The translations under genes and the position numbers were made by a program. DNA of 43,181 nt from Betaproteobacteria bacterium RIFCSPLOWO2_02_FULL_63_19 (GTDB taxonomy: Bacteria; Pseudomonadota; Gammaproteobacteria; Burkholderiales; SG8-39). The notes beneath the pieces were generated by a model. That model saw nothing but the letters and a program-made list of their open reading frames with translations. It ran no database searches and was not told the DNA's origin. Below, piece after piece: positions 9,155 through 41,845 of the stretch (the first letter of the stretch is position 1; each line of letters begins with the position of its first letter). Location of the stretch: the NCBI GenBank assembly GCA_001770415.1, contig MEQX01000015.1:31453-74633 (forward strand). Direction: 5' to 3'.

Positions 9155-10594
9155 TTAGCGCACCGTGAATCTCAGAGGATTCGGACTATAGACGAGCTGA
9201 CCGCTGGTCAATCGATACCCGCAGAAAACCGAATAATCGGCAGGAGGGAGTTGAGTCTGCGCAACCAGATTCGTATTGACAGTGGCTTGAAGGCCCACGC
9301 TTCCATAACCGCGAAGATCCGCTAGCTGTCCGCTCCAAGGCTGCCATCCGTTGCTGGTCAGCATGAACCACAATTCTCCCGGCTCGATCAACGCCACCGC
9401 AAGCAGATCGGCCAACCGATCTCTGTCGGTCGCACCGACAGAGATCGTCACGCCGAGGGAAATCTTGGTTTCCTTGGGGATTTCGCTCCCGGACACCGTA
9501 GGAAGCTGGTTACCTGTCAACCCGAATGCGACCGTCGTCGCGGTAGCGCCAGGCGTGCCATCCGCGTTAATCACGGACCCAGCCTGGACTTCACCCAAAA
9601 GCGCGCTGCAATTTGATGTTGATCCGCCGTTGGAACCCGCGCACGACCATGTCCACGGACCGGAACCGGAAACGGAACTGGCGGAGCCTGAACTGCACAG
9701 TTCAACGCTCGGCGCAGAGGAAACGGCGCTACCGTCACTGGAGCCGCAGACACCGTTTACGGGGACGGATGCCAAGCTAGCGGAGCAGAACGCGTTCGAA
9801 CCGCCGTCGGACCCCGCGCACGACCACGCCCATGGACCGGATCCGGAAACGGAGCTGGCGGACCCTGAACTGCACAGTCCCGCGCTCGGCGCGGAGGATA
9901 CGGTGCCGCCGTCACTGGAGCCGCAGGCACCGTTAACGGGAACGGGTGCCAGGTTCGCGGAGCAGGACGCGGTGGAACCGCCGTTGGAGCCCGAGCACGA
10001 CCACGTCCATGGACCGGAACCGGAAACCGAACTGGCGGATCCCGAACTGCACAGTCCCGCGCTCGGCGCGGAGGATGCGTTGGCACCATCGCTGGAGCCG
10101 CAGGCACCGTTAACGGGAACGGGTGCCAGGCTCGCGGAGCAGGACGCGGTCGAACCGCCGTTGGAGCCCGAGCACGACCACGTCCACGGACCGGAACCGG
10201 AAACGGAACTGGCGACACCCGAACTGCATAGTCCGGTGCTCGGTGCGGAGGATACGTTGGCGCCGTTGCTGGGGCCGCAGGCACCATTGACCTGGGCAGA
10301 CGAATTCGCAGAGCAGTTCGTTGATGTCCCTCCATTTTGACCCGCGCAGGTCCAAGTCCATGGACCGCTGCCGAGGACGGAACCCACAAGCAATACGTCC
10401 CCAGGTAAGCACAGGTCGGAGTTCGGCACAGTGGAAAAAGTACCACCGTTGCTGGTGCCGCATTGCCCTGGACAATCGCTACTAGTGCTACAAGCGGTAC
10501 CCCAGTCCCAAGCAAACGCAACTTCAATACAGGCAAACGAAACGACCAGCACGTAAAGCGCCCTGCACAAGCACTTGGTTCGAGACATCATCAA
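9155..10594 (-). CDS. Secreted cysteine-rich tandem-repeat protein (4-5 copies of a 59-aa, 4-Cys repeat) with a C-terminal domain shared with the neighbouring RCC1 protein
   Basis: 479 aa. Signal peptide CRALYVLVVSFACIEVAFA. Repeat unit is about VPVNGACGSSDGANASSAPSAGLCSSGSASSVSGSGPWTWSCSGSNGGSTASCSASLAP. The start may be a TTG at 10592-10594 or the ATGs 3 or 6 nt inside. Confidence 0.7.
   Translation of the reverse strand: MMMSRTKCLCRALYVLVVSFACIEVAFAWDWGTACSTSSDCPGQCGTSNGGTFSTVPNSDLCLPGDVLLVGSVLGSGPWTWTCAGQNGGTSTNCSANSSAQVNGACGPSNGANVSSAPSTGLCSSGVASSVSGSGPWTWSCSGSNGGSTASCSASLAPVPVNGACGSSDGANASSAPSAGLCSSGSASSVSGSGPWTWSCSGSNGGSTASCSANLAPVPVNGACGSSDGGTVSSAPSAGLCSSGSASSVSGSGPWAWSCAGSDGGSNAFCSASLASVPVNGVCGSSDGSAVSSAPSVELCSSGSASSVSGSGPWTWSCAGSNGGSTSNCSALLGEVQAGSVINADGTPGATATTVAFGLTGNQLPTVSGSEIPKETKISLGVTISVGATDRDRLADLLAVALIEPGELWFMLTSNGWQPWSGQLADLRGYGSVGLQATVNTNLVAQTQLPPADYSVFCGYRLTSGQLVYSPNPLRFTVR
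9590..10297. repeat. Four near-identical 177-bp coding tandem repeats (plus one degenerate copy extending to about 10465)
   Basis: The 59-aa periodicity shows in the minus-strand protein. It is mirrored in the plus-strand shadow ORF 9351..10340 (EPPLEPEHDHVHGPEPETELADPELHSPALGAED... repeated). Boundaries were computed from residue positions. Confidence 0.7.
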
Positions 10595-10677: not shown

Positions 10678-13326
10678 ATGAATTGGAGGTCCCTCCGGGT
10701 ACAGGCACGTATTGCGTTCGGTCTCGGCGCGCTTTGTCTTGGGGGCATTACATTCGCCGCGCCACCTCGACTGGCCGCCGGCGATACATTTTCGATGGCG
10801 CTGAGCACCAACGGCGAGGTATACGCGTGGGGCAGCAACATCTTTTCGCAACTGGGCGACGGCACGGGCGCGTTTAACCCCAACCCCTCCATAGCGGCCG
10901 TCGTGCCGGGCGTGAGCCGAATCGCCGGCGGAAACCAATGCAGCTACGCTTTGATGGAAAACGGGACGCTCTGGGCCTGGGGTGACAACACCAACGGACA
11001 ACTCGGTGACGGCACCACGCGGTCACACATCAACCCTGTTCGCGTTACGGGTATTCAAGAGCCCATCCTTGGTGTTGCCTCTGGCGCACGTCATGCACTT
11101 GCCGTCGATCGGAACGGCCAAGTCTGGGCTTGGGGTTCCGGCGACTACGGTCAACTGGGTCGCGAGACGACGCGCATCGAATCCACGCCATTGCCGGTGA
11201 ACGGCGTGCCACAGGCGACTGCGGTATCCGCGGGCGTCTATCACTCGCTGGCGCTTGCTGTCGATGGCACGGTGTGGGCTTGGGGGTACAACGCCGACGG
11301 AGAGCTCGGCAATGGCGGCACTACCAATAGTGCATTGCCAACCAAGGTGGCGGGCTTATCAAACATCGTTTCGATCGTGGCGGGCGCATACCATAATTTG
11401 GCGCTGGATCGAGATGGCACGGTCTGGGCTTGGGGGTTTGGAGGATCCGGCCGCCTTGGCGACGGTAGCAGCCAGACCAGGACGACGCCGGTCATGGTGC
11501 AGGGGTTGCCGATCGTCGCAAGTATTGCCGCGGCCAACATGAGTGCAGCGATCGATCGCGATGGCGCGGTATGGTTTTGGGGAACCAATCTATACGGCCA
11601 GTTCGGCGAGGCTGGAGTCGAAACCTCATTGCTGCCTCGAAAGAACGCAGGCTTGAGCGCCCTTCGAATCGCCGAGCTGGGATTCGGCTGGTATCACGCG
11701 ATCGCGCGTACGGCAGATGGAAAAGTGCTTACGTGGGGTGGCAATGAGCTTGGACAAATCGGCGATGGAACAATTGCAACGAGCACCGTGCCACTTGAGA
11801 TTTCGCAAATTGACCATGCCATACAGGTGAGCGCAAGCGGACAGCATACCTTTGTTGTCGATGCCGACGCGAACGTGTGGGCGTGGGGGGCCAACGGCAG
11901 CGGCCAACTCGGCGATGCGACGGTAGCACTGAGTAATCTTCCCAAGGCAGTACTTGGGCTCTCGGGAATCGCGGACATCGCGGCGGGTGGCTATCATGCC
12001 CTTGCGCTCGACGTTGGAGGGCATCTTTGGTCGTGGGGTGACAACACCAATGGACAGCTCGGGGATGGCACTACAGGTATGCACGCAATACCCCAGCAAC
12101 TCGCCGAGCCGGCGAACGCCGTGGCGATAGCGGCCGGTCGCGAATTCTCCATCGCGATGGATTCGAACGGCGAAGTCTGGTCCTGGGGGCGCTACCTGAA
12201 TGGACAATTGGGTCGAATAGGAAACAGTCTCGTACCGGCGAAGATATCGGGACTCCCCAAGGTGAAGGCGATAAGCGCGGGGGCCGAGCACGCGTTGGCA
12301 GTCGACGTCGATGGCGGCGTTTGGGCATGGGGGCGTAACGCGGACGGCAACCTCGGCGACGGCGAAACCAAGGACAGGAGTGTTCCGGTACGTGTTACGG
12401 GCGTGCCTCCGCATATCTTGGTTGCCGCGGGGCAGTATCACAGCCTTGGGCTTGCCGCCGACGGCACGGTTTGGGCGTGGGGCAGAAACAGTGATGGTCA
12501 ACTCGGAGACCAGACAACTGACGAAAGGCGCGTGCCGACAATGGTGCCTGGACTGGCAGAGATCGTCGGGATTGCAGCTGCCGGGAGCCACAGCCTGGCA
12601 TGGTCGTCAGACGGAACATTGTGGGCCTGGGGGAGCAACGAAGACGGCCAACTTGGCGCAGGCAGTAGTTCTCGTATTGTTACGTCGCCCGTCGGAATCG
12701 GCGACATTGGTCGAATTACGCATGCGGTTGCAGGATCCAGACATACACTTGCAACGCGCGAAGACGGATTGGTTTGGGCTTGGGGGCGCAATTTCGAGGG
12801 CCAACTGGGCGACGGGACCTTTGCAGCCTACAACCAGCCGGTTCTCGCGGTAAACCAGACTCTCACTGGCGTTCTCGACCTGAATTCCTTGGTCACCGAC
12901 AGCATCCCGACCGGGAAATACCCGCCGTTTCTTGCCAGGGCCACGCGGACCGGGGACTTAAGCGGATTGTCGCTCTCGGTGGAGGTCAAGGGCATCTCAA
13001 TAACAGGGATTTTCGCCTCCGAGATGGGCCGATTCGCGGCCACCTACAATGTCTATGTCGGAGCCAGCGTTTCCTCGGGCGGCACGCCAATCTATTTTCA
13101 ACTCGATGCAATCAACACTTGGAGCACTCTACGATTGCCGATGGCGGAATATCTGCGCGGGGTGACGCTGGACAGCCAAAACGATGTGGTCACGGCACAG
13201 CTTCTTCAGAACGTTGACCTTTCGGGGCTTCCCGGGGCCGAAATTCTAGTGGGGTACGGAACCGATTCAGACGAGATGCTGGGAAGCAAGCGCTACAGAG
13301 TCATTTTTACCGTGCCGGCGCAGTAG
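10678..13326 (+). CDS. Secreted RCC1-repeat (beta-propeller) protein with about 150-aa C-terminal non-RCC1 domain
   Basis: 882 aa. A GAGGTGG ribosome-binding site precedes the ATG. The signal peptide is RIAFGLGALCLGGITFAAP. At least 13 repeats follow the pattern GxxHSLALxxDGxVWAWGxNxxGQLGDGT. The C-terminal tail resembles the C-terminus of the 9155..10594 protein. Confidence 0.85.
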   Translation: MNWRSLRVQARIAFGLGALCLGGITFAAPPRLAAGDTFSMALSTNGEVYAWGSNIFSQLGDGTGAFNPNPSIAAVVPGVSRIAGGNQCSYALMENGTLWAWGDNTNGQLGDGTTRSHINPVRVTGIQEPILGVASGARHALAVDRNGQVWAWGSGDYGQLGRETTRIESTPLPVNGVPQATAVSAGVYHSLALAVDGTVWAWGYNADGELGNGGTTNSALPTKVAGLSNIVSIVAGAYHNLALDRDGTVWAWGFGGSGRLGDGSSQTRTTPVMVQGLPIVASIAAANMSAAIDRDGAVWFWGTNLYGQFGEAGVETSLLPRKNAGLSALRIAELGFGWYHAIARTADGKVLTWGGNELGQIGDGTIATSTVPLEISQIDHAIQVSASGQHTFVVDADANVWAWGANGSGQLGDATVALSNLPKAVLGLSGIADIAAGGYHALALDVGGHLWSWGDNTNGQLGDGTTGMHAIPQQLAEPANAVAIAAGREFSIAMDSNGEVWSWGRYLNGQLGRIGNSLVPAKISGLPKVKAISAGAEHALAVDVDGGVWAWGRNADGNLGDGETKDRSVPVRVTGVPPHILVAAGQYHSLGLAADGTVWAWGRNSDGQLGDQTTDERRVPTMVPGLAEIVGIAAAGSHSLAWSSDGTLWAWGSNEDGQLGAGSSSRIVTSPVGIGDIGRITHAVAGSRHTLATREDGLVWAWGRNFEGQLGDGTFAAYNQPVLAVNQTLTGVLDLNSLVTDSIPTGKYPPFLARATRTGDLSGLSLSVEVKGISITGIFASEMGRFAATYNVYVGASVSSGGTPIYFQLDAINTWSTLRLPMAEYLRGVTLDSQNDVVTAQLLQNVDLSGLPGAEILVGYGTDSDEMLGSKRYRVIFTVPAQ

Positions 13327-34493: not shown

Positions 34494-34906
34494 AGCCGCG
34501 CTCCCGGGAGCGGTGAGCCTGCCTTTCTAGGTACGGTAAGCGCGATCACTCGAACTACGGTGCATGCGCGGGTGAGGCAGCGCGTTCAGCATGTTGCCAG
34601 ATTCGAGCATCATCCCACCTATCAAAGTGCCCCGAAGACTGGGGGAAGACCAGAACTCCTCGACCATGCTCTCGAGGCCCTCGTAGCGGGCACTATGGAA
34701 TTCGTCCTGCGCAACGGGCTGCCCGGGGTCATACGGCGCGAGCAGCGTCTTTGTGCCGCCTTTCTTTCCCGCGATCAGCATTCCGCACGATTCTCGACCA
34801 ACCGGTTCAAATCGGCCTTAGGGCGACCCGACCTGATCCCGGATTCGTGGGATTGACAGTCAAGTTCAGCGGCAGCACAATGTGCGCCCATTACTGTCGA
34901 GGCGAC

Positions 34907-34999
34907 ATGAGAACAGTGGCACCAATGAACGAATTGCGGACCGGATCGCTGCAAAGCTGCAGCGAGGCCCCCGCGTATCCGGGAGCGGCGTTCGAGTAG
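34907..34999 (+). CDS. Small ORF A (30 aa, MRTVAPMNELRTGSLQSCSEAPAYPGAAFE), immediately followed by an intrinsic terminator
   Basis: A GAGGCG ribosome-binding site lies 5 nt upstream of the ATG. It is in frame within track ORF 34751..34999 and is paralogous at the DNA level to small ORF B. It is not supported beyond this context. Confidence 0.2.
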   Translation: MRTVAPMNELRTGSLQSCSEAPAYPGAAFE

Positions 35000-35021
35000 C
35001 GCGGCGCGCGATCGACCCGTG

Positions 35022-35054
35022 GCCCGGACTGCGCGAGCGCTCCGGGCTTTTTTG
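35022..35054 (+). terminator. Rho-independent terminator (GCCCGGA...TCCGGGC + TTTTTTG)
   Basis: A 7-bp GC stem with a 12-nt loop is followed by a T6 run. Confidence 0.6.
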
Positions 35055-35089
35055 TTTCTGGTTGAACGTGAACGACGACGAGTGAACTG

Positions 35090-35218
35090 ATGAGGACAGG
35101 ATCAAACGTGACGAAATGCAGCCAAGCGGCACCAGATCTGCGCGCCGCCTCGCCCGCGCTCGTGCTCGAGTACGGCGATCGGACAGCGCCCGCAATCCAG
35201 GCGGAGGAAGGAATGTAA
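35090..35218 (+). CDS. Small ORF B (42 aa, MRTGSNVTKCSQAAPDLRAASPALVLEYGDRTAPAIQAEEGM)
   Basis: Runs from the ATG at 35090 to a TAA at 35216-35218. Its 5' end (ATGAGGACAGGATCAAACGTGACGAA) resembles that of ORF A (ATGAGAACAGTGGCACCAATGAACGAA). A second terminator follows it. Confidence 0.2.
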   Translation: MRTGSNVTKCSQAAPDLRAASPALVLEYGDRTAPAIQAEEGM

Positions 35219-35245
35219 CGTACGCACCAGTTGCGTTCTCACGAA

Positions 35246-35282
35246 GCCCGGGTTGCGCCGCAAGGCCCCCGGGCTTTTTTGT
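35246..35282 (+). terminator. Rho-independent terminator (GCCCGGG...CCCGGGC + TTTTTTG)
   Basis: A GC stem is followed by a T6 run, and it sits immediately before the first tRNA-like gene. The tail (CCGGGCTTTTTTGT) is nearly identical to that of the first terminator. Confidence 0.6.
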
Positions 35283-35359
35283 GCCCCGCCGGCGGAATCG
35301 GCATACGCACGCGTTTCAGAAACGCGCATCTCCGGGTTCGAATCCCGGGTGGGGTACCA
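35283..35359 (+). tRNA. tRNA-like gene, anticodon CAG (Leu box) on a short-variable-arm (type I) body
   Basis: A cloverleaf can be drawn. Acceptor is GCCCCGC/GTGGGGT (two G-U pairs). Anticodon stem CGCGT/ACGCG with loop TTCAGAA. T-arm is CCGGG-TTCGAAT-CCCGG, with A73 and an encoded CCA. A Leu anticodon with a 5-nt variable loop is non-canonical. Confidence 0.55.
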
Positions 35360-35502
35360 GAGTTTTGCAGCAGAAGTTTTGCATTACCCGCGCCGGCACA
35401 GCGTCCGGGACTACGCGGTTTGCTCTTTGACAATTTGGATGTGGCACAACTTCGTCCGCGCGGGCAGGTGCCGCGCGCGGACGGAGTGTGGATGACGCAC
35501 GT

Positions 35503-35577
35503 GCAGACATGGCTTAACGGGCAGAGCGCGACGTTGCCAGCGTCGAGGCGCGGGTTCAAGACCTGCTGTCTGCACCA
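35503..35577 (+). tRNA. tRNA-Gly (GCC)
   Basis: Acceptor GCAGACA/TGTCTGC is perfect. D stem is GCTT/GAGC. Anticodon stem CGACG/CGTCG with loop TTGCCAG. T-arm is GCGGG-TTCAAGA-CCTGC and CCA is encoded. Confidence 0.8.
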
Positions 35578-35583
35578 GTTTTC

Positions 35584-35658
35584 TTTCCCGTCGTCTAACG
35601 GTCAGGACCGCGGCCCTTCAAGCCGCGTATGCCGGTTCGAGTCCGGCCGGGAATGCCA
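35584..35658 (+). tRNA. tRNA-Glu (TTC)-like, non-canonical (C33, U1-U72)
   Basis: It has a Glu-type 3-bp D stem (GTC/GAC). Anticodon stem GCGGC/GCCGC is perfect, with loop CCTTCAA (C at position 33). T-arm is GCCGG-TTCGAGT-CCGGC and CCA is encoded. The first acceptor pair is mismatched. Confidence 0.55.
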
Positions 35659-35665
35659 AACGTTC

Positions 35666-35746
35666 GGAAGGTGGCGCTCGTGCAAGCAAACGGTTTCGAA
35701 CACCGTCGCCAACCCGATGCGGGTTCGCCTCCTTCACCTTCCGCTA
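35666..35746 (+). tRNA. tRNA-like, anticodon CGA (Ser box), about 12-nt variable region, no encoded CCA
   Basis: Acceptor GGAAGGT/ACCTTCC is a perfect 7 bp. Anticodon stem ACGGT/ACCGT with loop TTCGAAC. The T-stem is weak (GCGGG-TTCGCCT-CCTTC). The 3' tail reads G-CTA. The D-arm is not cleanly resolved by eye. Confidence 0.4.
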
Positions 35747-35747
35747 T

Positions 35748-35823
35748 GGGGACGTGGCTCAATCGCCAGAGCGCCTGCCTTGCAAGCAGGAGGGTGTCGG
35801 TTGGACTCCGACCGTCTCCACCA
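35748..35823 (+). tRNA. tRNA-Ala (TGC) with G3:U70 but aberrant T-loop (TTGGACT)
   Basis: Acceptor GGGGACG/CGTCTCC includes G3-U70. D stem GCTC/GAGC. Anticodon stem CCTGC/GCAGG with loop CTTGCAA. T-arm is GTCGG-TTGGACT-CCGAC, with G56 instead of C56. CCA is encoded. Confidence 0.7.
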
Positions 35824-35824
35824 A

Positions 35825-35901
35825 CTCGCTGTAGCGCAGCTGGCCAGCGCGCCTCGTTCGGGGCGAGGAGACCGCAGGTTCGAATCCTGCCGGCGAGACC
35901 A
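35825..35901 (+). tRNA. tRNA-Pro (CGG)
   Basis: Acceptor CTCGCTG/CGGCGAG has a C1-G72 pair as in bacterial tRNA-Pro. D stem GCGC/GCGC. Anticodon stem CCTCG/CGAGG with loop TTCGGGG. T-arm is GCAGG-TTCGAAT-CCTGC and CCA is encoded. Confidence 0.8.
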
Positions 35902-35906
35902 ACATT

Positions 35907-35983
35907 ACCTCCTTAGTTCAACGGAACGAGAGCGCGCGGCCACGGACCGCGAGATGAGGGTTCGAATCCTTCCGGGGGTACCA
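35907..35983 (+). tRNA. tRNA-Arg (ACG)-like, non-canonical (C33, G37, A1-U72, 7-66 mismatch)
   Basis: D stem GTTC/GAGC with a 10-nt loop. Anticodon stem CGCGG/CCGCG is perfect, with loop CCACGGA. T-arm is GAGGG-TTCGAAT-CCTTC and CCA is encoded. Confidence 0.55.
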
Positions 35984-35992
35984 GTTCGGCTC

Positions 35993-36065
35993 GGCACTGT
36001 AACTCAGAGGCCAGAGTGCCCGCCTGTCGAGCGGAAGACCGCGGGTTCGAATCCCGTGAGCGTCG
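35993..36065 (+). tRNA. tRNA-Asp (GTC)-like, degenerate acceptor, no encoded CCA
   Basis: D stem ACTC/GAGT. Anticodon loop CTGTCGA. T-arm is GCGGG-TTCGAAT-CCCGT. Acceptor GGCACTG/GAGCGTC pairs at 5 of 7 positions. The 3' tail is G-CGA. Confidence 0.5.
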
Positions 36066-36077
36066 CGAGCATCCGCA

Positions 36078-36153
36078 CGGCGCGTAACTTAACGGCGAAA
36101 GGTCCTGACTCTTAATCAGCGAGATGCAGGTTCGAATCCTGCCGCGCCGACCA
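36078..36153 (+). tRNA. tRNA-Lys (CTT)
   Basis: Acceptor CGGCGCG/CGCGCCG is a perfect 7 bp. D stem ACTT/AGGT. Anticodon loop CTCTTAA. T-arm is GCAGG-TTCGAAT-CCTGC, with A73 and an encoded CCA. Position 26 is missing or the anticodon stem is 4 bp. Confidence 0.7.
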
Positions 36154-36155
36154 CG

Positions 36156-36232
36156 CCCCGCGTAGCTCAGCCGGAAGAGCGCCTGCCTTGTAAGCAGGAG
36201 GACGCGCGTTCGAATCGACGCCCGGGGCACCA
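36156..36232 (+). tRNA. tRNA-Thr (TGT)-like with degenerate T-stem
   Basis: D stem GCTC/GAGC. Anticodon stem CCTGC/GCAGG with loop CTTGTAA. The T region GCGCG-TTCGAAT-CGACG pairs poorly. Acceptor CCCCGCG/CCCGGGG pairs at 6 of 7. The 3' tail is CACCA. Confidence 0.45.
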
Positions 36233-36233
36233 T

Positions 36234-36309
36234 GCTTCCGTAGCTGGTCTGGTGAAAGCGCCGGCCTGAAAAGCCGGAGAGGTTCGTTCGAATCGAACGG
36301 GAAGCGCCA
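36234..36309 (+). tRNA. tRNA-Phe (GAA)
   Basis: Acceptor GCTTCCG/GGGAAGC pairs at 6 of 7. Anticodon stem CCGGC/GCCGG is perfect, with loop CTGAAAA. T-arm is GTTCG-TTCGAAT-CGAAC and CCA is encoded. The D stem is 3 bp. Confidence 0.75.
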
Positions 36310-36314
36310 ACAGA

Positions 36315-36389
36315 AGGGGCGTAGTTCAGCGGCAGAACGCCGGACTCTGAATCCGGATGTCCCTGGTTCGATCCCAGGCGTCCCCGCCA
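36315..36389 (+). tRNA. tRNA-Gln (CTG)
   Basis: D stem GTTC/GAAC. Anticodon stem CCGGA/TCCGG with loop CTCTGAA. T-arm is CCTGG-TTCGATC-CCAGG. Acceptor AGGGGCG/CGTCCCC pairs at 6 of 7, with a 1-72 A-C mismatch. CCA is encoded. Confidence 0.7.
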
Positions 36390-36395
36390 GTTAAT

Positions 36396-36471
36396 GCCGG
36401 TCCAGCTCAGCGAGCAGAGCATTCCCCTGATAAGGGAAAGACCCGCAGTTCGAGTCCACGGGCCGGTACCC
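36396..36471 (+). tRNA. tRNA-Ile (GAT)-like; 3' CCC instead of CCA, two T-stem mismatches
   Basis: Acceptor GCCGGTC/GGCCGGT has two G-U pairs. D stem GCTC/GAGC. Anticodon stem TTCCC/GGGAA with loop CTGATAA. T-arm CGCAG-TTCGAGT-CCACG resembles enterobacterial Ile GGTGG-TTCAAGT-CCACT but carries two stem mutations. Confidence 0.55.
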
Positions 36472-36476
36472 GTCAT

Positions 36477-36552
36477 CGTCCAGTAGCTCAATCTGTGGAG
36501 CGGCGCGCTGTTGACGCGAGGGCTGCAGGTTCGAAGCCTGCCTGCACAGCCA
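36477..36552 (+). tRNA. tRNA-Asn (GTT)-like, degenerate acceptor
   Basis: D stem GCTC/GAGC. Anticodon stem GCGCG/CGCGA with loop CTGTTGA. T-arm is GCAGG-TTCGAAG-CCTGC. Acceptor CGTCCAG/CTGCACA pairs at 5 of 7. CCA is encoded. Confidence 0.55.
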
Positions 36553-36804
36553 GTTTCAATGGCGATCTTGATGTAGGAGCAGCACGGCGGAACGTGACTC
36601 CGCAGGCGCCGGTGCGATTCCGGCAGATCACCCCATCCCGGCTGCCACATCCCAAGTAATGCTCGCCGCGATTCGCGGCGGGCGTAAAGAGTTTGTCGTG
36701 ACCGGTTCTGCAGCGGGTAAGGCTCGTGAGTCCTGCCTGGCGCGCTCGGCCCGAAACATCGGCCCTGTGTGTACCGCGGAAACGGGAGCGACGGACACCA
36801 CGAA

Positions 36805-36877
36805 GTGTGGATAGCTCAGTGGAAAGAGCAATCGGCATAGGTCCGATGAGTCGCGGGTTCGAATCCCGCTCCGAAGC
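36805..36877 (+). tRNA. tRNA-like gene with non-canonical anticodon loop (CATAGGT; A33; anticodon position reads TAG), no CCA
   Basis: D stem GCTC/GAGC with loop AGTGGAAA. Anticodon stem ATCGG/CCGAT. T-arm GCGGG-TTCGAAT-CCCGC is perfect. Acceptor GTGTGGA/TCCGAAG is poor, with mismatches at 1-72 and 3-70. A weak AT-rich hairpin (36881-36900) follows it. Confidence 0.4.
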
Positions 36878-37154
36878 AGCAAAAGGCCTTGAAAGCCTTT
36901 AACGCAGTACCGGACCGGCTTCCGCACGCTCCGCAGAACATCGCGGTGCAGGCACCGGGCGTCAGACCGAGTGCGCCGTGCGGCGCGCGCGGGCGAAACG
37001 GCAACAGCCGAGCGTGAGCGGCGCTCGTCGTCCAGGGCAACGGGCGGGAGTTCGCGAGCGCGAGGCGCGGCAGTTTTCCCCCGCACGCGCGGCGGAGCCC
37101 GTCGGCGAACGGGAAGCCGGGGCCGGAATCTTTGACGATGGATGGAGTTGAGCG

Positions 37155-37379
37155 ATGTTGATGAATGAGGTGGCATTAACGGTTCGCCTGACTGGCCGCG
37201 AAGCGGATGTGCTGCGGCTGATCGCGCGCGGCTGCACGTACGCGCAAGTCGCCGAGCGGCTCGGCATGTCGGCGCACACGGTGGGCTCTCACGTCAAGAA
37301 CGCCTACCGCAAGCTCGACGTCCACTCGGCGCCTGCGGCGGTGATGCGCGCCATCCAGCTGCGCCTGCTCGAGACATGA
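37155..37379 (+). CDS. LuxR/GerE-type HTH transcriptional regulator (stand-alone 74-aa HTH)
   Basis: LTGREADVLRLIARGCTYAQVAERLGMSAHTVGSHVKNAYRKL is a canonical LuxR C-terminal HTH. A GGAG ribosome-binding site precedes the ATG. Confidence 0.8.
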   Translation: MLMNEVALTVRLTGREADVLRLIARGCTYAQVAERLGMSAHTVGSHVKNAYRKLDVHSAPAAVMRAIQLRLLET

Positions 37380-37408
37380 GGGCGCTTGATTGACGATGTA
37401 AGGAGAAG

Positions 37409-38557
37409 ATGATGATGCCGTTTCGCAAGTTTCGTGTGAAGAAGGACGAACGTGCGCTGCTGTTCGACCGCGGCGACTTCGTCGAGGTGCTGGGTCCGGG
37501 CGAGCACGTTCGCTTCGACCCGCTGTTCCGTCTCGCGCTGCAGACGTTCGCGCTTGCGGAGCCGCGCTTCGAGCACCGGCTGGGCGACTGGCTGGTGAAG
37601 GCCGAGCGTGAAGTCGTGGAGCGCGAGTTCCACTTCGTCGAGCTGGGGCCGACCGAGGTGGGCATGCTCTTCGCGGACGGCGTGCTGCTCGAAGTGCTGG
37701 CGCCGAACACCCGCCAGCTGTACTGGAAGGGTTACATCGACCTGCGCTTCGAGCGTATCGACATCGCGACCGACTTCGCGGTCGACGCGAAGCTGGTGCC
37801 GCAGCTGATCGCCTTCACCGGCCACGACTTCAAGGTGCTGGTGAAGGGCGGCGCGGGCGTGTACGGCGTGCAGGTGCCGGCTTTCCATGTGGCGGTGCTG
37901 TACGTGAACGGCAAGCTGCATGGCGTGATCGAGGCGGGCGCATACGCGTACTGGGCCTTCGGCCGCGATCTGCGCGTCGAGTTCGTGGACCTGCGTCTGC
38001 AGGCAATCGAGGTGGCGGGCCAGGAGATCCTGACCAAGGACAAGGTGCCGCTGCGCGTGAACCTGAACGCCGGCTACCGCGTGACCGATGTCGTGACCGC
38101 GTACGGGAAGCAGGCCAAGCCGGCTGACTTTCTGTACAAGGAGCTCCAGTTCGGTCTGCGCGCGGCGGTGGGTACACGTACCCTGGACGAGCTGCTGGAA
38201 AACAAGGGCGTGATCGACCAGGTAGTTGCGGCGCACGTCGCGCAGCGCGTCGAGGCCTTCGGCCTCGAGGTGGATTCGGTCGGCGTCAAGGACATCATCC
38301 TGCCGGGTGACATGAAGACGATCCTGGCGAAGGTGGTGGAAGCGGACAAGATCGCGCTCGCCAACGTGATCCGTCGTCGCGAAGAAACCGCGGCGACCCG
38401 TTCGCTGCTCAACACCGCCCGCGTGATGGAGGACAACCCGACCGCGCTGCGGCTGAAGGAGCTGGAGACGCTGGAAAAGGTCACCGAAAAGATCGACAAG
38501 ATCTCGGTCTTTGGCGGCCTCGACGGCGTGCTCAAGGATCTGGTGAAGATCCGATGA
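37409..38557 (+). CDS. SPFH / band-7 (slipin/stomatin-like) domain protein
   Basis: 382 aa. The SPFH core is …EVAGQEILTKDKVPLRVNLNAGYRVTD… followed by …VKDIILPGDMKTILAKVVEADKIALANVIRRREETAATRSL…. Confidence 0.85.
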   Translation: MMMPFRKFRVKKDERALLFDRGDFVEVLGPGEHVRFDPLFRLALQTFALAEPRFEHRLGDWLVKAEREVVEREFHFVELGPTEVGMLFADGVLLEVLAPNTRQLYWKGYIDLRFERIDIATDFAVDAKLVPQLIAFTGHDFKVLVKGGAGVYGVQVPAFHVAVLYVNGKLHGVIEAGAYAYWAFGRDLRVEFVDLRLQAIEVAGQEILTKDKVPLRVNLNAGYRVTDVVTAYGKQAKPADFLYKELQFGLRAAVGTRTLDELLENKGVIDQVVAAHVAQRVEAFGLEVDSVGVKDIILPGDMKTILAKVVEADKIALANVIRRREETAATRSLLNTARVMEDNPTALRLKELETLEKVTEKIDKISVFGGLDGVLKDLVKIR

Positions 38558-38610
38558 GGTGCAATACCACTTGACGAGCCGAGGTGCGCCCCTCGGCTCT
38601 TTTTCGCAGC

Positions 38611-39561
38611 TTATTCGTTCTCGTTCGAATTGAGGGCGGAATCGAAGAACGCTACCACCTTGGCGAGATACATCTCGCGCAACGGCGACGGCGTTTGCTG
38701 TTCGTGGCCGAGCCTGATGCCCTCGGTATGGCCCCGGCCGCGAAGTACCCAAATCCTGTCCGCGGGGTTTCTCGAGGCGGCCTTGAGGCGATACGCATGG
38801 CGCACGGGGATCACATCGTCGTCGTTTCCGTGAATGAACAGGATGGGGCGGGGCGCAATGGCAGGCACCGCGCGCATTGGCTGGATGCGGTCCAGGTCGA
38901 GTCCGTGGAACACCCATGCAATGCTCTCGATCCCTGGGCTGGCGAGCGTGCTCGCCAGCCATGTTGGTGCGGATGTACGGGATTCGATCTGTGCAGTCAT
39001 CAGGTCACGCACGTCCGAGAAGGCGCTGTCCGCCACCACGGCGCCGACTTCCGGGATATCGGCCGCAGCCAGCAGCGCTGTTGCCGCTCCGTAGGAGGTT
39101 CCGTGCACGCCGATAGCGCCGGGCTTGAAGCCGCGCGCGAGCAGCAGATCCACCGCGGCGCGCACATCGCCGCGCTCGTCCCAGCCCAGGCCAAGGCGTT
39201 TGCCACCGGAGCGCCCGTGCCCGCGCAGGTCGAACGCCAAAACGTGGAATCCCGCAGAGACATAGGCCCGCGCGAGATCCGGGTGTCCGCCATCCCAACT
39301 GGCCGAATCGACGCCGTGAACGAGCACGATGGCACGCGTTCCGTGTGATGGCATCAGCCAGCCCGCAAGCGGAACGCCATCGCGGGCGCTTGCGAAGCGT
39401 ACAGCTTCGGCGTCGTCGTCCAGGGGGCTGCGAATTGCGTGCGGGGCCGGTCGCGGGGTCAGGGCGGCCGACAGTACGATCGCGGAAAATCCGAAATAGG
39501 CAGCGCTCAGCAGCCCGACAATTCCTGTCCAGAGCAGGATTCCAGACTTGAGTCGATTCAT
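38611..39561 (-). CDS. Alpha/beta hydrolase (membrane-anchored/secreted serine hydrolase)
   Basis: 316 aa with an N-terminal TM/signal segment (ILLWTGIVGLLSAAYFGFSAIVL). The nucleophile elbow is GTSYGA (GxSxG). It is divergent from a LysR gene. Confidence 0.8.
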   Translation of the reverse strand: MNRLKSGILLWTGIVGLLSAAYFGFSAIVLSAALTPRPAPHAIRSPLDDDAEAVRFASARDGVPLAGWLMPSHGTRAIVLVHGVDSASWDGGHPDLARAYVSAGFHVLAFDLRGHGRSGGKRLGLGWDERGDVRAAVDLLLARGFKPGAIGVHGTSYGAATALLAAADIPEVGAVVADSAFSDVRDLMTAQIESRTSAPTWLASTLASPGIESIAWVFHGLDLDRIQPMRAVPAIAPRPILFIHGNDDDVIPVRHAYRLKAASRNPADRIWVLRGRGHTEGIRLGHEQQTPSPLREMYLAKVVAFFDSALNSNENE

Positions 39562-39688
39562 CGCCGTATCCTCCGTGACATCGCGTTGTCCACGGTGTCA
39601 GGATGCCCGCCGCGCCGTCGCTCCGCCACGGGGCAGGCGTTAAACTACCCCCAAGCGGCGCTTACACAGATTTCTGCGAGGTGGCCCA

Positions 39689-40609
39689 GTGTCGGACGAC
39701 TCCTATAGAGTGATGGACCTCAAGGCGCTGCGCTGTTTCTGGGCAGCGGCATCCCAGGGCAGCCTGACCCGAGCCGGCATCGAACTGGGTATTTCGGAAG
39801 CCGCCGTTTCCCAGCGGATCAGGGCGCTGGAGGGATACCTCGGGGTCAAGCTCTACGAATCGCGCGGCGGACGCCTTCGGCTTACATCTGCAGGCGATCG
39901 AACCTTCGAGATGGCGATCGGCCTTTTTTCGAATCTTGAGGATTTTGAAAAGAACGTCGCGCAGGAGGAGGCCACCGGTACGCTAACGCTGGCTTCGTCG
40001 GAAAGTATCCTGCGCAACCTTCTGCCGGACGTTGCGCAGCGATTCGCCGAGCAGTTTCCGCTGGTCCGGCTGCGTCTGCGGCGCAGGAGCGTGCCGGACA
40101 TACTCAAGCTGGTCCGAACAAACGAAGTCGATGCTGGCATCCTCATCGAGCGCGCGCTGCCCGAGGACCTCGTCTTTCAGCCGATTCGCGTCTACAAGTC
40201 CTATCTCGTCTGTCAGCGCGGGCACCCGCTGGTGCGAAGGGGTGTCCCGAATATCGCCGAACTGCTGCGCGAGGACATTGTCCGACACTACCCGCTCGTC
40301 GTCGCGGAGAAGGACGATCCGGATGACAGCAAGCTCGAGGAGACGCTCGCACGGCACAAACTGCCGTTCAATGTGGCGCTCGAAGCCGGCACGGAGGAAA
40401 CGCTGAAGTACTACGTCCTGCGCGGGCTCGGCGTCGCCGTGCTGTCGGGCATGAGCCTGGACGATGCGGACCGGAAACTGTTCGAGGTGATCGAAATCCC
40501 GCAGGAGTACGGCGGCGACAACACCTACGGCACGGTCATGCGGCGCGACAAGCATGTTTCGCGACCACTGCGCGGCTTGCTGGGTTTACTGAACGGGCCG
40601 CCGAACTAA
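39689..40609 (+). CDS. LysR-family transcriptional regulator
   Basis: 306 aa. The N-terminal HTH (LRCFWAAASQGSLTRAGIELGISEAAVSQRIRALEGYLGVKLYES) is followed by a LysR substrate-binding domain. Confidence 0.9.
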   Translation: MSDDSYRVMDLKALRCFWAAASQGSLTRAGIELGISEAAVSQRIRALEGYLGVKLYESRGGRLRLTSAGDRTFEMAIGLFSNLEDFEKNVAQEEATGTLTLASSESILRNLLPDVAQRFAEQFPLVRLRLRRRSVPDILKLVRTNEVDAGILIERALPEDLVFQPIRVYKSYLVCQRGHPLVRRGVPNIAELLREDIVRHYPLVVAEKDDPDDSKLEETLARHKLPFNVALEAGTEETLKYYVLRGLGVAVLSGMSLDDADRKLFEVIEIPQEYGGDNTYGTVMRRDKHVSRPLRGLLGLLNGPPN

Positions 40610-40732
40610 GCGAAAAAGAAGCGCGAGCAGGGCGACGAAGGCGACAGCCAGCCTGCGGCGCAAAGCAACGATGCGCATGCTCAGGTCTCCGGAGCGTTCG
40701 TCACGGATCTGTCCGCAAGTGCCTTAGCTCTG

Positions 40733-41845
40733 TTAGCCCTTGATGTTGAGGATCGGCAGCACATGGGCCACGACCTCCACCATCTCATTTTGCCGGCGCA
40801 TCACCTCGAAGATGCTCTTGTAGGCGAATGGAGACTCGTCAAGCGTTTCATCCGTCACCCGCGCCACAACGCCGGCCATCGTTTCGGCGAAGCTCTCCAT
40901 CGTCAGCGTCCGTTTGGCTTCCTTGCGCCCGAGCACTCGCCCCGCACCGTGTGAGCTGGACCACAGCGCATCCGCGTTGGCCTTGCCGCGCACAATGAAT
41001 GAGCCGTCCCGCATGTTTCCCGGGATGACGCCCATCATTCCTGCCTCGGCATGTGTCGCACCCTTGCGGTGAATCCAGAGGCCGTCTTTCTGCTCTGCGT
41101 GGTTGTGGTTGCTGTTGATGAGCGCGCCCCAATCCGCCGTGCCAGGCAACAGCGCGTCCATCACGGCGACGATCCGCCGCATCATCTCGAGCCGATTCTC
41201 CAGCGCGAACGCGAGGCAGAAGACCATGTCCTTCGTGTAGTCCGCTCCTTCCATGCTTTCGACTGCGAACCCGAAATGCCCTTCGCGGGCCTTTCCATCG
41301 CCACTGGCGAGCCTCATATAGTGTGAGGCCGCTGCGTGTCCGATGCCACGGCTCCCGGAATGAATGATGATCCAAACCTTCCCGGTTTCGTCCGCGCCAA
41401 CCTCGGCAAAGTGGTTTCCTCCGCCAAGCGAGCCGAGCTGCCTGTGTCCGTTCTTGGCGAAAATTTCCTGCATCTTGTTGGTGCGCGGCAGGCTGTCGCC
41501 TTCGCTCCACTCGGTGTTTCTGGCGTTGTGCGAGAAGCCGACCGGCACTGCCTTGTAAATGCCGTCGAAAATCTTTCGCGCCTTTGCGCGCACGTCTTCG
41601 GCTTTGTGGCTGGTCGGCAGCGCGCACATTCCGCAGCCAATGTCGTACCCCACCCATGCAGGGAGCACTACGCCATCCGTTGCAACCACGCCGCCAATCG
41701 GCAGCGAGTAGCCGGCATGTGCATCAGGCATCAGCGCCCCACGCACTGCGAACGGCTGTTGCATGGCGCTCGCGAATTGATTCAACGCCTCCTGTTCAAG
41801 CACATCGGCGAATATCCGGTAGGGTTTGTCGGTGTTGATTTGCAT
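40733..41845 (-). CDS. rtcB: RtcB-family RNA 3'-phosphate ligase
   Basis: 370 aa. It has RtcB metal- and GTP-binding motifs: PDAHAGYSLPIGG, GGGNHFAE, HSGSRGIGH, NHNH and SSHGAGR. Confidence 0.9.
   Translation of the reverse strand: MQINTDKPYRIFADVLEQEALNQFASAMQQPFAVRGALMPDAHAGYSLPIGGVVATDGVVLPAWVGYDIGCGMCALPTSHKAEDVRAKARKIFDGIYKAVPVGFSHNARNTEWSEGDSLPRTNKMQEIFAKNGHRQLGSLGGGNHFAEVGADETGKVWIIIHSGSRGIGHAAASHYMRLASGDGKAREGHFGFAVESMEGADYTKDMVFCLAFALENRLEMMRRIVAVMDALLPGTADWGALINSNHNHAEQKDGLWIHRKGATHAEAGMMGVIPGNMRDGSFIVRGKANADALWSSSHGAGRVLGRKEAKRTLTMESFAETMAGVVARVTDETLDESPFAYKSIFEVMRRQNEMVEVVAHVLPILNIKG

Follow-up and report, generated by a model that had tools for sequence, protein, structure and literature searches.

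What is the purpose of "cryptic" long tRNA arrays, and what is the role of the Band-7 proteins and tRNA-like RNAs that are partners of the RNA ligase RtcB? The two puzzles meet in one operon of Betaproteobacteria bacterium RIFCSPLOWO2_02_FULL_63_19, an uncultured betaproteobacterium from aquifer sediment. The window, by which we mean the whole analysed stretch of 43,181 nucleotides (nt) of contig MEQX01000015.1 (positions 31,453 to 74,633), contains a series of tRNA-type genes followed on the same strand by genes for a LuxR-type regulator and an SPFH/Band-7 ('slipin') protein. A gene for RtcB is located farther downstream on the opposite strand. An earlier note on this DNA proposed that the array, the two protein genes and RtcB constitute a 7-kb island for tRNA supply and repair. 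Comparison with ~85 related loci revealed a larger conserved RNA-plus-protein operon around the array, and the outline was therefore redrawn as ~34853–38609. This region is one apparent transcription unit, which contains, in order, a promoter, two leader units each made of a small open reading frame (ORF) and a terminator, fourteen tRNAs, an 83-nt structured RNA, a tRNA mimic, a ~240-nt rod-shaped RNA, the LuxR gene, the SPFH gene, and a terminator (Table 1). It is probable that the region is a Band-7 (SPFH/slipin) and tRNA-like RNA repair or translation-stress module that has acquired a mobile long tRNA array as an insertion, and the individual steps of its function are less certain than this overall assignment.

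The limits of the unit were determined by comparison with 80 species-level loci coding for SPFH relatives with 47–85% identity, mostly from uncultured Burkholderiales, Steroidobacteraceae, Lysobacterales, and large sulfur bacteria. The loci are labelled by L-numbers. Three closer SPFH relatives, with identities of 91, 86, and 85%, were added to the set. Loci with an SPFH identity of at least 75% are referred to as the window's clade, and the denominators of all counts of SPFH neighbours include only loci with enough flanking DNA. The nucleotide homology of the window to its relatives is continuous from ~35244 to ~38604, and in L001 it begins already at ~34650. The array, LuxR, and SPFH genes are thus inherited together, as the earlier note had suggested, and the comparison identifies the array, the RNA region, LuxR, and SPFH as the conserved unit. 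The window RtcB is absent from the loci of the relatives. Because the homology ends at ~38604 and no relative shares the RtcB side, the 7-kb block is not co-inherited.

The existence of a single 7-kb island of array, LuxR, SPFH, and RtcB is very unlikely, and as a co-inherited block it is largely refuted. The physical proximity is real, since RtcB starts 3.86 kb after the array, on the opposite strand, close to the ~3.9 kb given in the earlier note, and the arrangement recurs on same-strain contigs from several samples. The link between RtcB and SPFH is also strong at the level of the family, which makes a chance proximity of RtcB a priori unlikely (for a genome of a few Mb, our estimate is well below 1%). 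However, the full arrangement is common only to those same-strain contigs. Downstream of SPFH, the relatives with identities of 91, 86, and 85% differ from the window in their genes and lack an RtcB within 10 kb, and RtcB is absent from the window position in nine of nine close relatives. The hydrolase, LysR, RtcB, amidase, and ABC transporter genes of the window are near SPFH in none of the 80 loci and three closer relatives. In the reverse comparison, SPFH, LysR, and the hydrolase are near none of 80 metagenomic relatives of the window RtcB, the closest ones, with identities of 57–82%. Furthermore, the ligase gene lies 2.2 kb past the operon terminator, beyond two unrelated genes; the earlier note correctly placed LuxR and SPFH between the array and RtcB and overlooked these two, which encode the hydrolase and the LysR regulator.

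The RtcB of the window belongs to a short clade. Its metal-binding and GMP-histidine motifs are intact in an alignment to solved RtcB structures, it does not reach the score cut-offs of the NCBIfam RtcB equivalogs, and it is 33–39% identical to the RtcBs that accompany SPFH. The intact catalytic motifs and the SPFH–RtcB link in the family are compatible with the recruitment of this short RtcB as a functional partner after the clade had lost its in-operon ligase, with the proximity maintained by selection. Short-clade RtcBs often occur with tRNA genes (L081, L085, L116, and L128, and large arrays in L146 and L159), which also fits recruitment. Nevertheless, the arrangement is limited to one strain, the gene is on the opposite strand, no regulatory signal common to RtcB and the operon was identified, and no tRNA-like gene was found upstream of RtcB in the window. 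Recruitment is possible, and we consider it somewhat unlikely. The tRNA-like genes that directly precede short-clade RtcBs are at 472–548 in L081, 2259–2335 in L085, 136–290 in L116, and 94–170 in L128; those of L081 and L085 are 'Pro-TGG' calls with their own promoter-like sites. Three metagenomic contigs (L146, L159, and L102) have RtcB within very large tRNA arrays, with 8–24 genes.

Throughout Burkholderiales and in several Gammaproteobacteria, the loci share a constant core, in which a structured RNA precedes the SPFH gene. This RNA comprises a 5' element and one or two tRNA mimics, to which the 240-nt rod is added in Burkholderiales. Searches with nhmmer detected the 5' element in 47 relatives, where each locus has a single copy and this copy is invariably located upstream of SPFH. 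RNAalifold predicted 19 base pairs in the element, nine of which display compensatory changes. In its alignment, 97% of the cells are paired, compared with 33–55% when the 3' partners were slid, and none of 500 shuffles reached the covariation score. The rod was found by nhmmer in 42 relatives, directly after the mimic. Its insertions and deletions are not multiples of three, and compensatory changes are present in 28 of its 39 predicted pairs. The covariation score of the rod is 0.43, compared with 0.07–0.12 in the slid controls, and the observed value was not reached in 500 shuffles. No Rfam 15 family matched the 5' element or the rod at E≤5 in the window or at the gathering score in six relatives. 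Judged by Rfam and the accessible text, these flanking structured RNAs appear undescribed.

Between the two RNAs lies the mimic, the last of the tRNA-type genes; the other fourteen make up the array. The D and T arms of the mimic are nearly invariant across 49 orthologues. Its acceptor stem has only four pairs, which covary from TGGA/TCCA to TCCA/TGGA, and the CCA end is absent. The Rfam tRNA model matches at positions 4–67 or 5–66 only. In the anticodon loop, U33 and A37/A38 are kept, while the 49 orthologues contain ~25 different triplets, the commonest of which is GAT. The alignment indicates that 36805–36877 is a separately conserved tRNA mimic, neither an array member nor a decoding tRNA, and we equate it here with the Band-7-associated 'b7a-tRNA'. 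Many relatives contain a second mimic just upstream (tRNA-like 1), with a full acceptor stem and CCA, and often with a GNRA tetraloop replacing the anticodon loop; it was not found in the window. A tRNA or tRNA-like gene is located at most 900 nt upstream of SPFH on the same strand in 69 of 72 loci. The two covariation-supported RNAs absent from Rfam and the acceptor-truncated mimic provide handles for biochemistry.

The variable triplets of the mimic, set among nearly invariant arms and a conserved U33 and A37/A38, could be explained if the mimic were a decoy or sentinel for anticodon nucleases, the cleavage of which soaks up the toxin or signals damage. RtcR is reported to respond to tRNA halves ending in cyclic phosphate (PMC10159003), which is in line with such a signal. 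However, the window contains no RtcR, tRNA-like 1 carries a tetraloop and no anticodon loop in many loci, and the variation of the triplet may reflect a mere lack of constraint, with GAT still the commonest. We regard the decoy function as improbable.

A further possibility is that the 5' element, mimic, and rod are not an RNA partner of the protein and constitute a cis-regulatory leader of SPFH, similar to a riboswitch or T-box. The RNA is always directly upstream of SPFH on the same strand. In loci without LuxR (L005 4941–4960 and the equivalents in L006, L008, L011, and L042), the 3' strand of the basal helix of the rod can form a short, terminator-like hairpin with a T-run just ahead of the ribosome-binding site of SPFH. 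Attenuators typically have alternative folds that exclude each other in this way, and the rod base and the hairpin may be riboswitch-like alternatives. In loci with LuxR, including the window, however, the T-run is degraded and a whole gene fills the gap between the rod and SPFH. Moreover, the CCA ends found on mimics and the GNRA tetraloops on their anticodon arms look like features of stable processed RNAs, and no known riboswitch or T-box model in Rfam matches the region. We consider the cis-acting leader rather unlikely, and prefer the reading of the composite RNA as a partner of the SPFH protein.

The SPFH family is tightly tied, in the genomes compared, to tRNA-like RNAs and to the RNA-repair genes RtcB and RtcR. 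A full-length RtcB adjoins SPFH on the same strand in 24 of 53 loci, and in none of the nine from the window's clade. The SPFH orthologues beside RtcB are 47–74% identical to that of the window. The adjacent RtcB has ~400 residues and is encoded between the array and SPFH, within the array (L025 and L027), or directly after SPFH. A 355-residue AAA ATPase is encoded just downstream of SPFH in 13 loci (L002–L018, L028, and L034; ~1.15–2.3 kb after the SPFH start), which are mostly from the window's clade, a clade without an adjacent RtcB; the window has no copy. HNH endonuclease genes are next to the arrays in 11 loci, and none is in the window. The partners that vary around the constant core are RtcB, a nucleotidyltransferase, RtcR, the AAA ATPase, the HNH endonuclease, LuxR, and a tRNA array of zero to ~20 genes.

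In cultured bacteria, members of the family are found within the Rtc repair locus. In Burkholderia cenocepacia, the order is rtcR, tRNA-like RNA, SPFH, RtcB, and nucleotidyltransferase, and the window SPFH is 57% identical to the protein encoded between rtcR and rtcB. In Citrobacter freundii, rtcR is followed by a candidate sigma-54-type promoter, recognized by eye (TGGCAC-N5-TGGCA), a "slipin family protein", and a nucleotidyltransferase. The pair of slipin and nucleotidyltransferase is present, at a coverage of at least 80%, in 1625 of 5426 complete E. coli genomes (~30%). The pair is located between rluF/DUF3811 and lysC (L161 5469–7922). In Citrobacter it has rtcR adjacent, and the RNA upstream of it is divergent and gives no tRNA call in ARAGORN. 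The Pseudomonas aeruginosa SPFH protein PaFlo8 was reported to be encoded within the rtc locus (PMC13086221). Since the family occurs in B. cenocepacia and in ~30% of complete E. coli genomes, the ideas presented here can be tested in cultivable hosts.

ARAGORN identified 15 same-strand tRNA-type genes in positions 35283–36877, the last of which is the mimic. They occupy 1.6 kb, with spacers mostly of 1–12 nt, all have different anticodons, and they form no periodic pattern; the only internal repeats of the array are the shared tRNA arms. All 15 score above the Rfam tRNA gathering score with relaxed filters (34.6–66.2 bits), and 13 pass the default filters. The first gene, 'Leu-CAG', is separated from the rest by ~140 nt and is the conserved first array element in the window's clade; a stub of it is left in the array-less locus L165. 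The thirteen genes that follow are, in order, Gly-GCC, Glu-TTC, Ala-TGC, Pro-CGG, Arg-ACG, Asp-GTC, Lys-CTT, Thr-TGT, Phe-GAA, Gln-CTG, Ile-GAT, Asn-GTT, and His-GTG. The earlier description of the array as non-canonical is supported: the two 'Leu' calls (77 and 73 nt) lack the long variable arm, the acceptor stems of several genes contain mismatches, and the Asp and Ile genes have no encoded CCA. Identity elements are retained, namely G3:U70 in the gene for Ala and G-1 together with C73 and CCA in that for His. In tRNA-Lys(CTT) orthologues from 22 loci, the anticodon loop is invariant, the ACCA end is present in nearly all, and 14 of 16 stem pairs display compensatory changes. The comparisons indicate that the array tRNAs are maintained tRNAs for 14 amino acids, structurally constrained by purifying selection, and not decaying copies. 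Their anticodons presumably match the major codons of the GC-rich genome.

The array is distributed patchily. Arrays of at least five tRNAs are present upstream of SPFH in 25 of 60 loci and in 9 of 12 from the window's clade, and among the window itself and its relatives with 85–86% SPFH identity the gene count is 0, 15, or 19. The gene order is the same in L164, L042, and L006; L164, an 85% relative, has 19 genes, which are in the window's order with the addition of Val, Met, and Trp. The array-less loci L001, L003, and L165 keep the leader unit, 5' element, mimic, rod, LuxR, and SPFH, and have ~100 nt at the array position. The insertion is always at the same point and in the same orientation, between the leader terminators and the 5' element. 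Comparison of the gene content of the array-less loci with that of L164 suggests that whole tRNA units were gained or lost cleanly. Because close relatives with the rest of the operon lack the array, it is accessory and not the sole source of its isoacceptors, and its redundancy to the housekeeping tRNAs is implied indirectly by the same relatives. The patchy distribution and the differing chromosomal contexts of the module among relatives are consistent with horizontal gain and loss.

Such a distribution could also result if the array were selfish mobile cargo in the SPFH operon, of no benefit to the host, as such arrays are spread by homing endonucleases. In favour of cargo are the varying presence of the array among close relatives, the different chromosomal contexts of the module, and the HNH genes next to the arrays in 11 loci, which resemble those beside cyanobacterial arrays (PMC8421152). 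On the other hand, the window lacks an HNH gene, the gene order and anticodons are conserved and the stems carry compensatory changes, and the point and orientation of the insertion are constant. In addition, the array of Anabaena aids survival under translational stress (PMC8421152). An array that is nothing but cargo is quite unlikely.

Two irregularities of the arrays were observed. The 89-nt gap between tRNA-Glu and tRNA-Ala in the window contains a degenerate tRNA remnant (~35666–35742), with a T-arm-like repeat at 35714–35735 and a weak match to Rfam tRNA-Sec (18.5 bits). In L164, the Glu and Ala genes are adjacent. The tRNA-Asn(GTT) slot of L164 (2938–3013) holds a gene with the anticodon TTA, which would read the UAA stop codon.

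The operon is preceded by a strong sigma-70-like promoter, identical hexamers of which, with the same spacing (TTGACA-17-CACAAT), are found at the same place in the array-less L165; a similar promoter-like site precedes the module in L005. The two small-ORF-plus-terminator units before the array, described as paralogous in the earlier note, were confirmed as such by a repeat search. Homologues of unit 1 are upstream of the arrays in 11 relatives, and unit 2 is also present in the array-less L001 and L165. The small ORFs have no match in Pfam or NCBIfam. Across 12 loci, the hairpin of unit 2 is almost invariant, and the stop codon of its ORF remains in a single alignment column while switching between TAA, TAG, and TGA, which hints at translation. 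The last codons of this ORF can pair with the 5' arm of the terminator and are a candidate anti-terminator, with a complementarity of 4–7 of 7 in the 12 loci. It displays no covariation because the terminator arm is invariant. The conserved ~25-nt motif in the gap after the Leu-like gene has homologous sites in 11 relatives and persists in the array-less L165; in L005, the hairpin before it scores as terminator-like. Read by eye, the motif fits neither the sigma-54 nor the sigma-70 consensus, and the sigma-54 consensus is not matched in the gap after the Leu-like gene or before the 5' element.

Two side observations concern the left end of the operon. The promoter spacer (34863–34878) and the D-arm of the array tRNA-Gln (36323–36338) share 94% identity over 16 nt, and the likeness may be the relic of a tRNA gene or chance. 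An ORF of 84 codons (34527–34781, minus strand), without a family match, diverges from the promoter; its product has 72% protein identity to the sequence at the same position in L001, and it may be part of the left end of the module.

A gene for the LuxR-type protein separates the rod from SPFH in only some loci, all of the window's clade. In L042, the gap between the rod and SPFH (~9850–9990) contains a pseudogene remnant, the translation of which resembles the N-terminus of LuxR (VDQTVRLTEREADVLRLIA...). The remnant suggests that LuxR is probably ancestral in the clade and decayed in some of its members. The window SPFH has 100% identity to a deposited protein of Betaproteobacteria bacterium RIFCSPLOWO2_02_FULL_63_19, which starts one codon after the start of the 382-residue ORF. 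Its nearest solved relatives are stomatins (E=1e-20), and residues 1–150 have no annotation. The highest mean Kyte-Doolittle hydropathy over 19 residues is 1.32, and no hydrophobic segment of the strength of a membrane helix was detected by this measure. The label of membrane protein, given to SPFH in the earlier note, is therefore unsupported. An AlphaFold2 model of SPFH, calculated from an alignment of 30 sequences, had a mean pLDDT of 34.7 and was unusable.

Table 1 Features of the operon and its downstream neighbours, in window coordinates
Feature	Position	Strand	Basis
Sigma-70-like promoter, TTGACA-17-CACAAT	34853–34881	+	Promoter scan, 10/12 matches
Leader unit 1: 30-codon ORF (34907–34999), intrinsic-terminator hairpin and T-run (35022–35053)	34907–35053	+	Read from sequence
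Leader unit 2: 42-codon ORF (35090–35218), terminator hairpin and T-run (35246–35280)	35090–35280	+	12-locus alignment
First tRNA-type gene, 'Leu-CAG', 77 nt, class-I geometry, CCA encoded	35283–35359	+	ARAGORN; Rfam 45.6 bits
Conserved ~25-nt motif, CTCTTT(T/G)ACAAyTTGGATGTGGCAmA	35422–35449	+	12-locus alignment, after hairpin
Accessory array of 13 tRNA genes	35503–36635	+	ARAGORN, Rfam
Structured 5' RNA element, 83 nt, closing helix and two hairpins	36711–36793	+	nhmmer, RNAalifold
tRNA mimic, ARAGORN 'Leu-TAG'	36805–36877	+	ARAGORN; Rfam; 49-orthologue alignment
3' 'rod' RNA, ~240 nt, long interrupted helix	36887–37133	+	nhmmer; covariation
Stand-alone LuxR/GerE helix-turn-helix protein, 74 aa	37155–37379	+	Pfam E=1.6e-15
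SPFH/Band-7 ('slipin') protein, 381–382 aa	37409–38557	+	Pfam Band_7 E=1.1e-28
Intrinsic terminator, operon end	38576–38609	+	Terminator scan; homology to relatives stops at ~38604
Alpha/beta hydrolase	38611–39561	-	Domain scan
LysR regulator	39689–40609	+	Domain scan
Short-clade RtcB RNA ligase, 370 aa	40733–41845	-	E=2e-88
Penicillin amidase	from 42006	-	Domain scan

Based on the anatomy of the locus, its associations, and the structural constraints on its RNAs, we infer a mode of regulation, binding of RNA to protein, and a role in repair. The two leader-ORF/terminator units after the promoter would hold the expression of the operon down most of the time. Damage to translation or its stalling, caused for example by ribotoxins or antibiotics, may allow transcription to read through the leader. 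The read-through would deliver replacement tRNAs together with the tRNA-mimic RNA and the SPFH protein. SPFH and the composite RNA may assemble into a scaffold or particle, with the help of which an RNA ligase would reseal tRNA or rRNA that has been cleaved. The ligase would have to act in trans, as the operon has none; it may be the nearby short RtcB or another one encoded elsewhere in the genome. The supply and repair function proposed in the earlier note is retained in part: the family-level tie to RtcB and RtcR genes and the structurally selected tRNAs agree with it, while the window RtcB is outside the conserved unit.

Several points weigh against this explanation. The attenuation by the leader is speculation from geometry, with a candidate anti-terminator that is partly complementary and without covariation. 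The binding of the RNA by SPFH is suggested by their co-occurrence only. The operon contains no ligase, RtcR, or nucleotidyltransferase, and the clade has no adjacent RtcB in nine loci, so its function may not involve ligation. A more ambitious extension of the repair or translation-stress module is that the locus encodes a bacterial ribonucleoprotein, in which a stomatin-like SPFH oligomer would bind the ~430-nt RNA made of the 5' element, mimic, and rod, as a counterpart of Ro/Y-RNA or the vault. Together with the attenuator-gated spare tRNAs, it would constitute a cassette that is self-contained, can be exchanged horizontally, and both senses damage to the translation apparatus and repairs it. 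We offer this extension tentatively and consider it doubtful as a whole.

The remainder of the window encodes ordinary chromosomal functions, such as ABC and TRAP transporters, dehydrogenases, a P-type ATPase, and a Crp-type regulator. One protein of 882 residues (10678–13326, plus strand), unrelated to the finding, consists nearly entirely of RCC1-like repeats (Pfam WD40_RLD, E=1.7e-241). The earlier note saw no integrase or direct repeats, and the searches agreed: domain scans detected no integrase, recombinase, or transposase in the window and no integrase or recombinase domain in the 10 kb beyond it, and a repeat search found no direct repeats flanking the unit. We rejected an integrase-borne genomic island on these results. 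A viral origin, as a phage tRNA cluster, was also rejected, since the SPFH query found no relative on IMG/VR viral contigs. The same applies to a known anti-phage defence system, since SPFH, RtcB, the hydrolase, LysR, and the 84-codon ORF had no match in PADLOC; LuxR matches only the helix-turn-helix part of the CARF-HTH models.

The closest known system is the one predicted by Burroughs and Aravind in 2016 (Nucleic Acids Res), in which RtcB is sometimes beside a Band-7 protein and a never-validated 'band-7-associated tRNA', as quoted in bioRxiv 10.1101/312249. The window shares with it an SPFH/Band-7 protein of the RtcB-associated clade and a tRNA-like RNA upstream of SPFH on the same strand. 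Unlike in the predicted system, the operon has no RtcB, and the nearest one is past the terminator, on the opposite strand, and from another clade. The nucleotidyltransferase and RtcR are also lacking, and LuxR is present instead; tblastn searches of the window with the E. coli nucleotidyltransferase and the Citrobacter RtcR gave no match at E≤1e-3. Compared with the system as quoted, the window adds the 14-gene array, the leader-ORF/terminator units, and the two covariation-supported RNAs flanking the mimic. Since SPFH and the mimic are present with other partners, the locus is a variant of a known, predicted system.

The rtcR-rtcBA system of E. coli and Salmonella is similar in that the window has an RtcB with intact motifs nearby, and the members of the SPFH family in Citrobacter and Burkholderia are regulated by RtcR. 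It differs in that no RtcR homologue and no sigma-54 promoter were found in the window, the RtcA domain is not among the scanned ORFs, and RtcB is flanked by LysR and penicillin amidase. The RtcB2-PrfH pair was rejected as an identification, given the same two neighbours and a TIGR03073 score of 144.9 bits, compared with the cut-off of 271.8. The likeness to Ro60 (Rsr)/YrlA and to vaults is one of concept, namely a ring- or cage-forming protein and a structured RNA with a tRNA-like domain beside RtcB. The shoulder domain of the major vault protein is SPFH-like. In contrast to Ro60/YrlA, no TROVE domain is present in the scanned ORFs of the window and the architecture of the RNA differs. A match to YrlA RNA on an array tRNA was rejected as chance-level (27.6 bits, with a gathering score of 69).

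The window also resembles the long tRNA arrays of cyanobacteria. Santamaria-Gomez et al. (PMC8421152) defined long arrays that spread horizontally and reported HNH genes next to those of cyanobacteria. In Anabaena, translation inhibitors induce the array, its regulation is shared with rtcB and an HNH gene, and it improves survival under translational stress. The window array is likewise long, non-periodic, of a single orientation, and patchy in distribution, and its proposed role is also in survival of translational stress. The regulon of the Anabaena repressor TrcR comprises the array, rtcB, HNH endonucleases, a slipin family protein, and an AAA ATPase (PMC10272220), and the same list of parts is found here clustered physically around SPFH across the loci. 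In Anabaena the genes are dispersed and share TrcR, whereas in the window the array is fused to the SPFH/tRNA-mimic operon of an uncultured betaproteobacterium, and its control appears to be exerted by leader/terminator units and a LuxR-type protein. The fusion argues that the spare tRNAs and the SPFH/RNA module serve one stress response, and mirrors the TrcR regulon in the form of a gene cluster.

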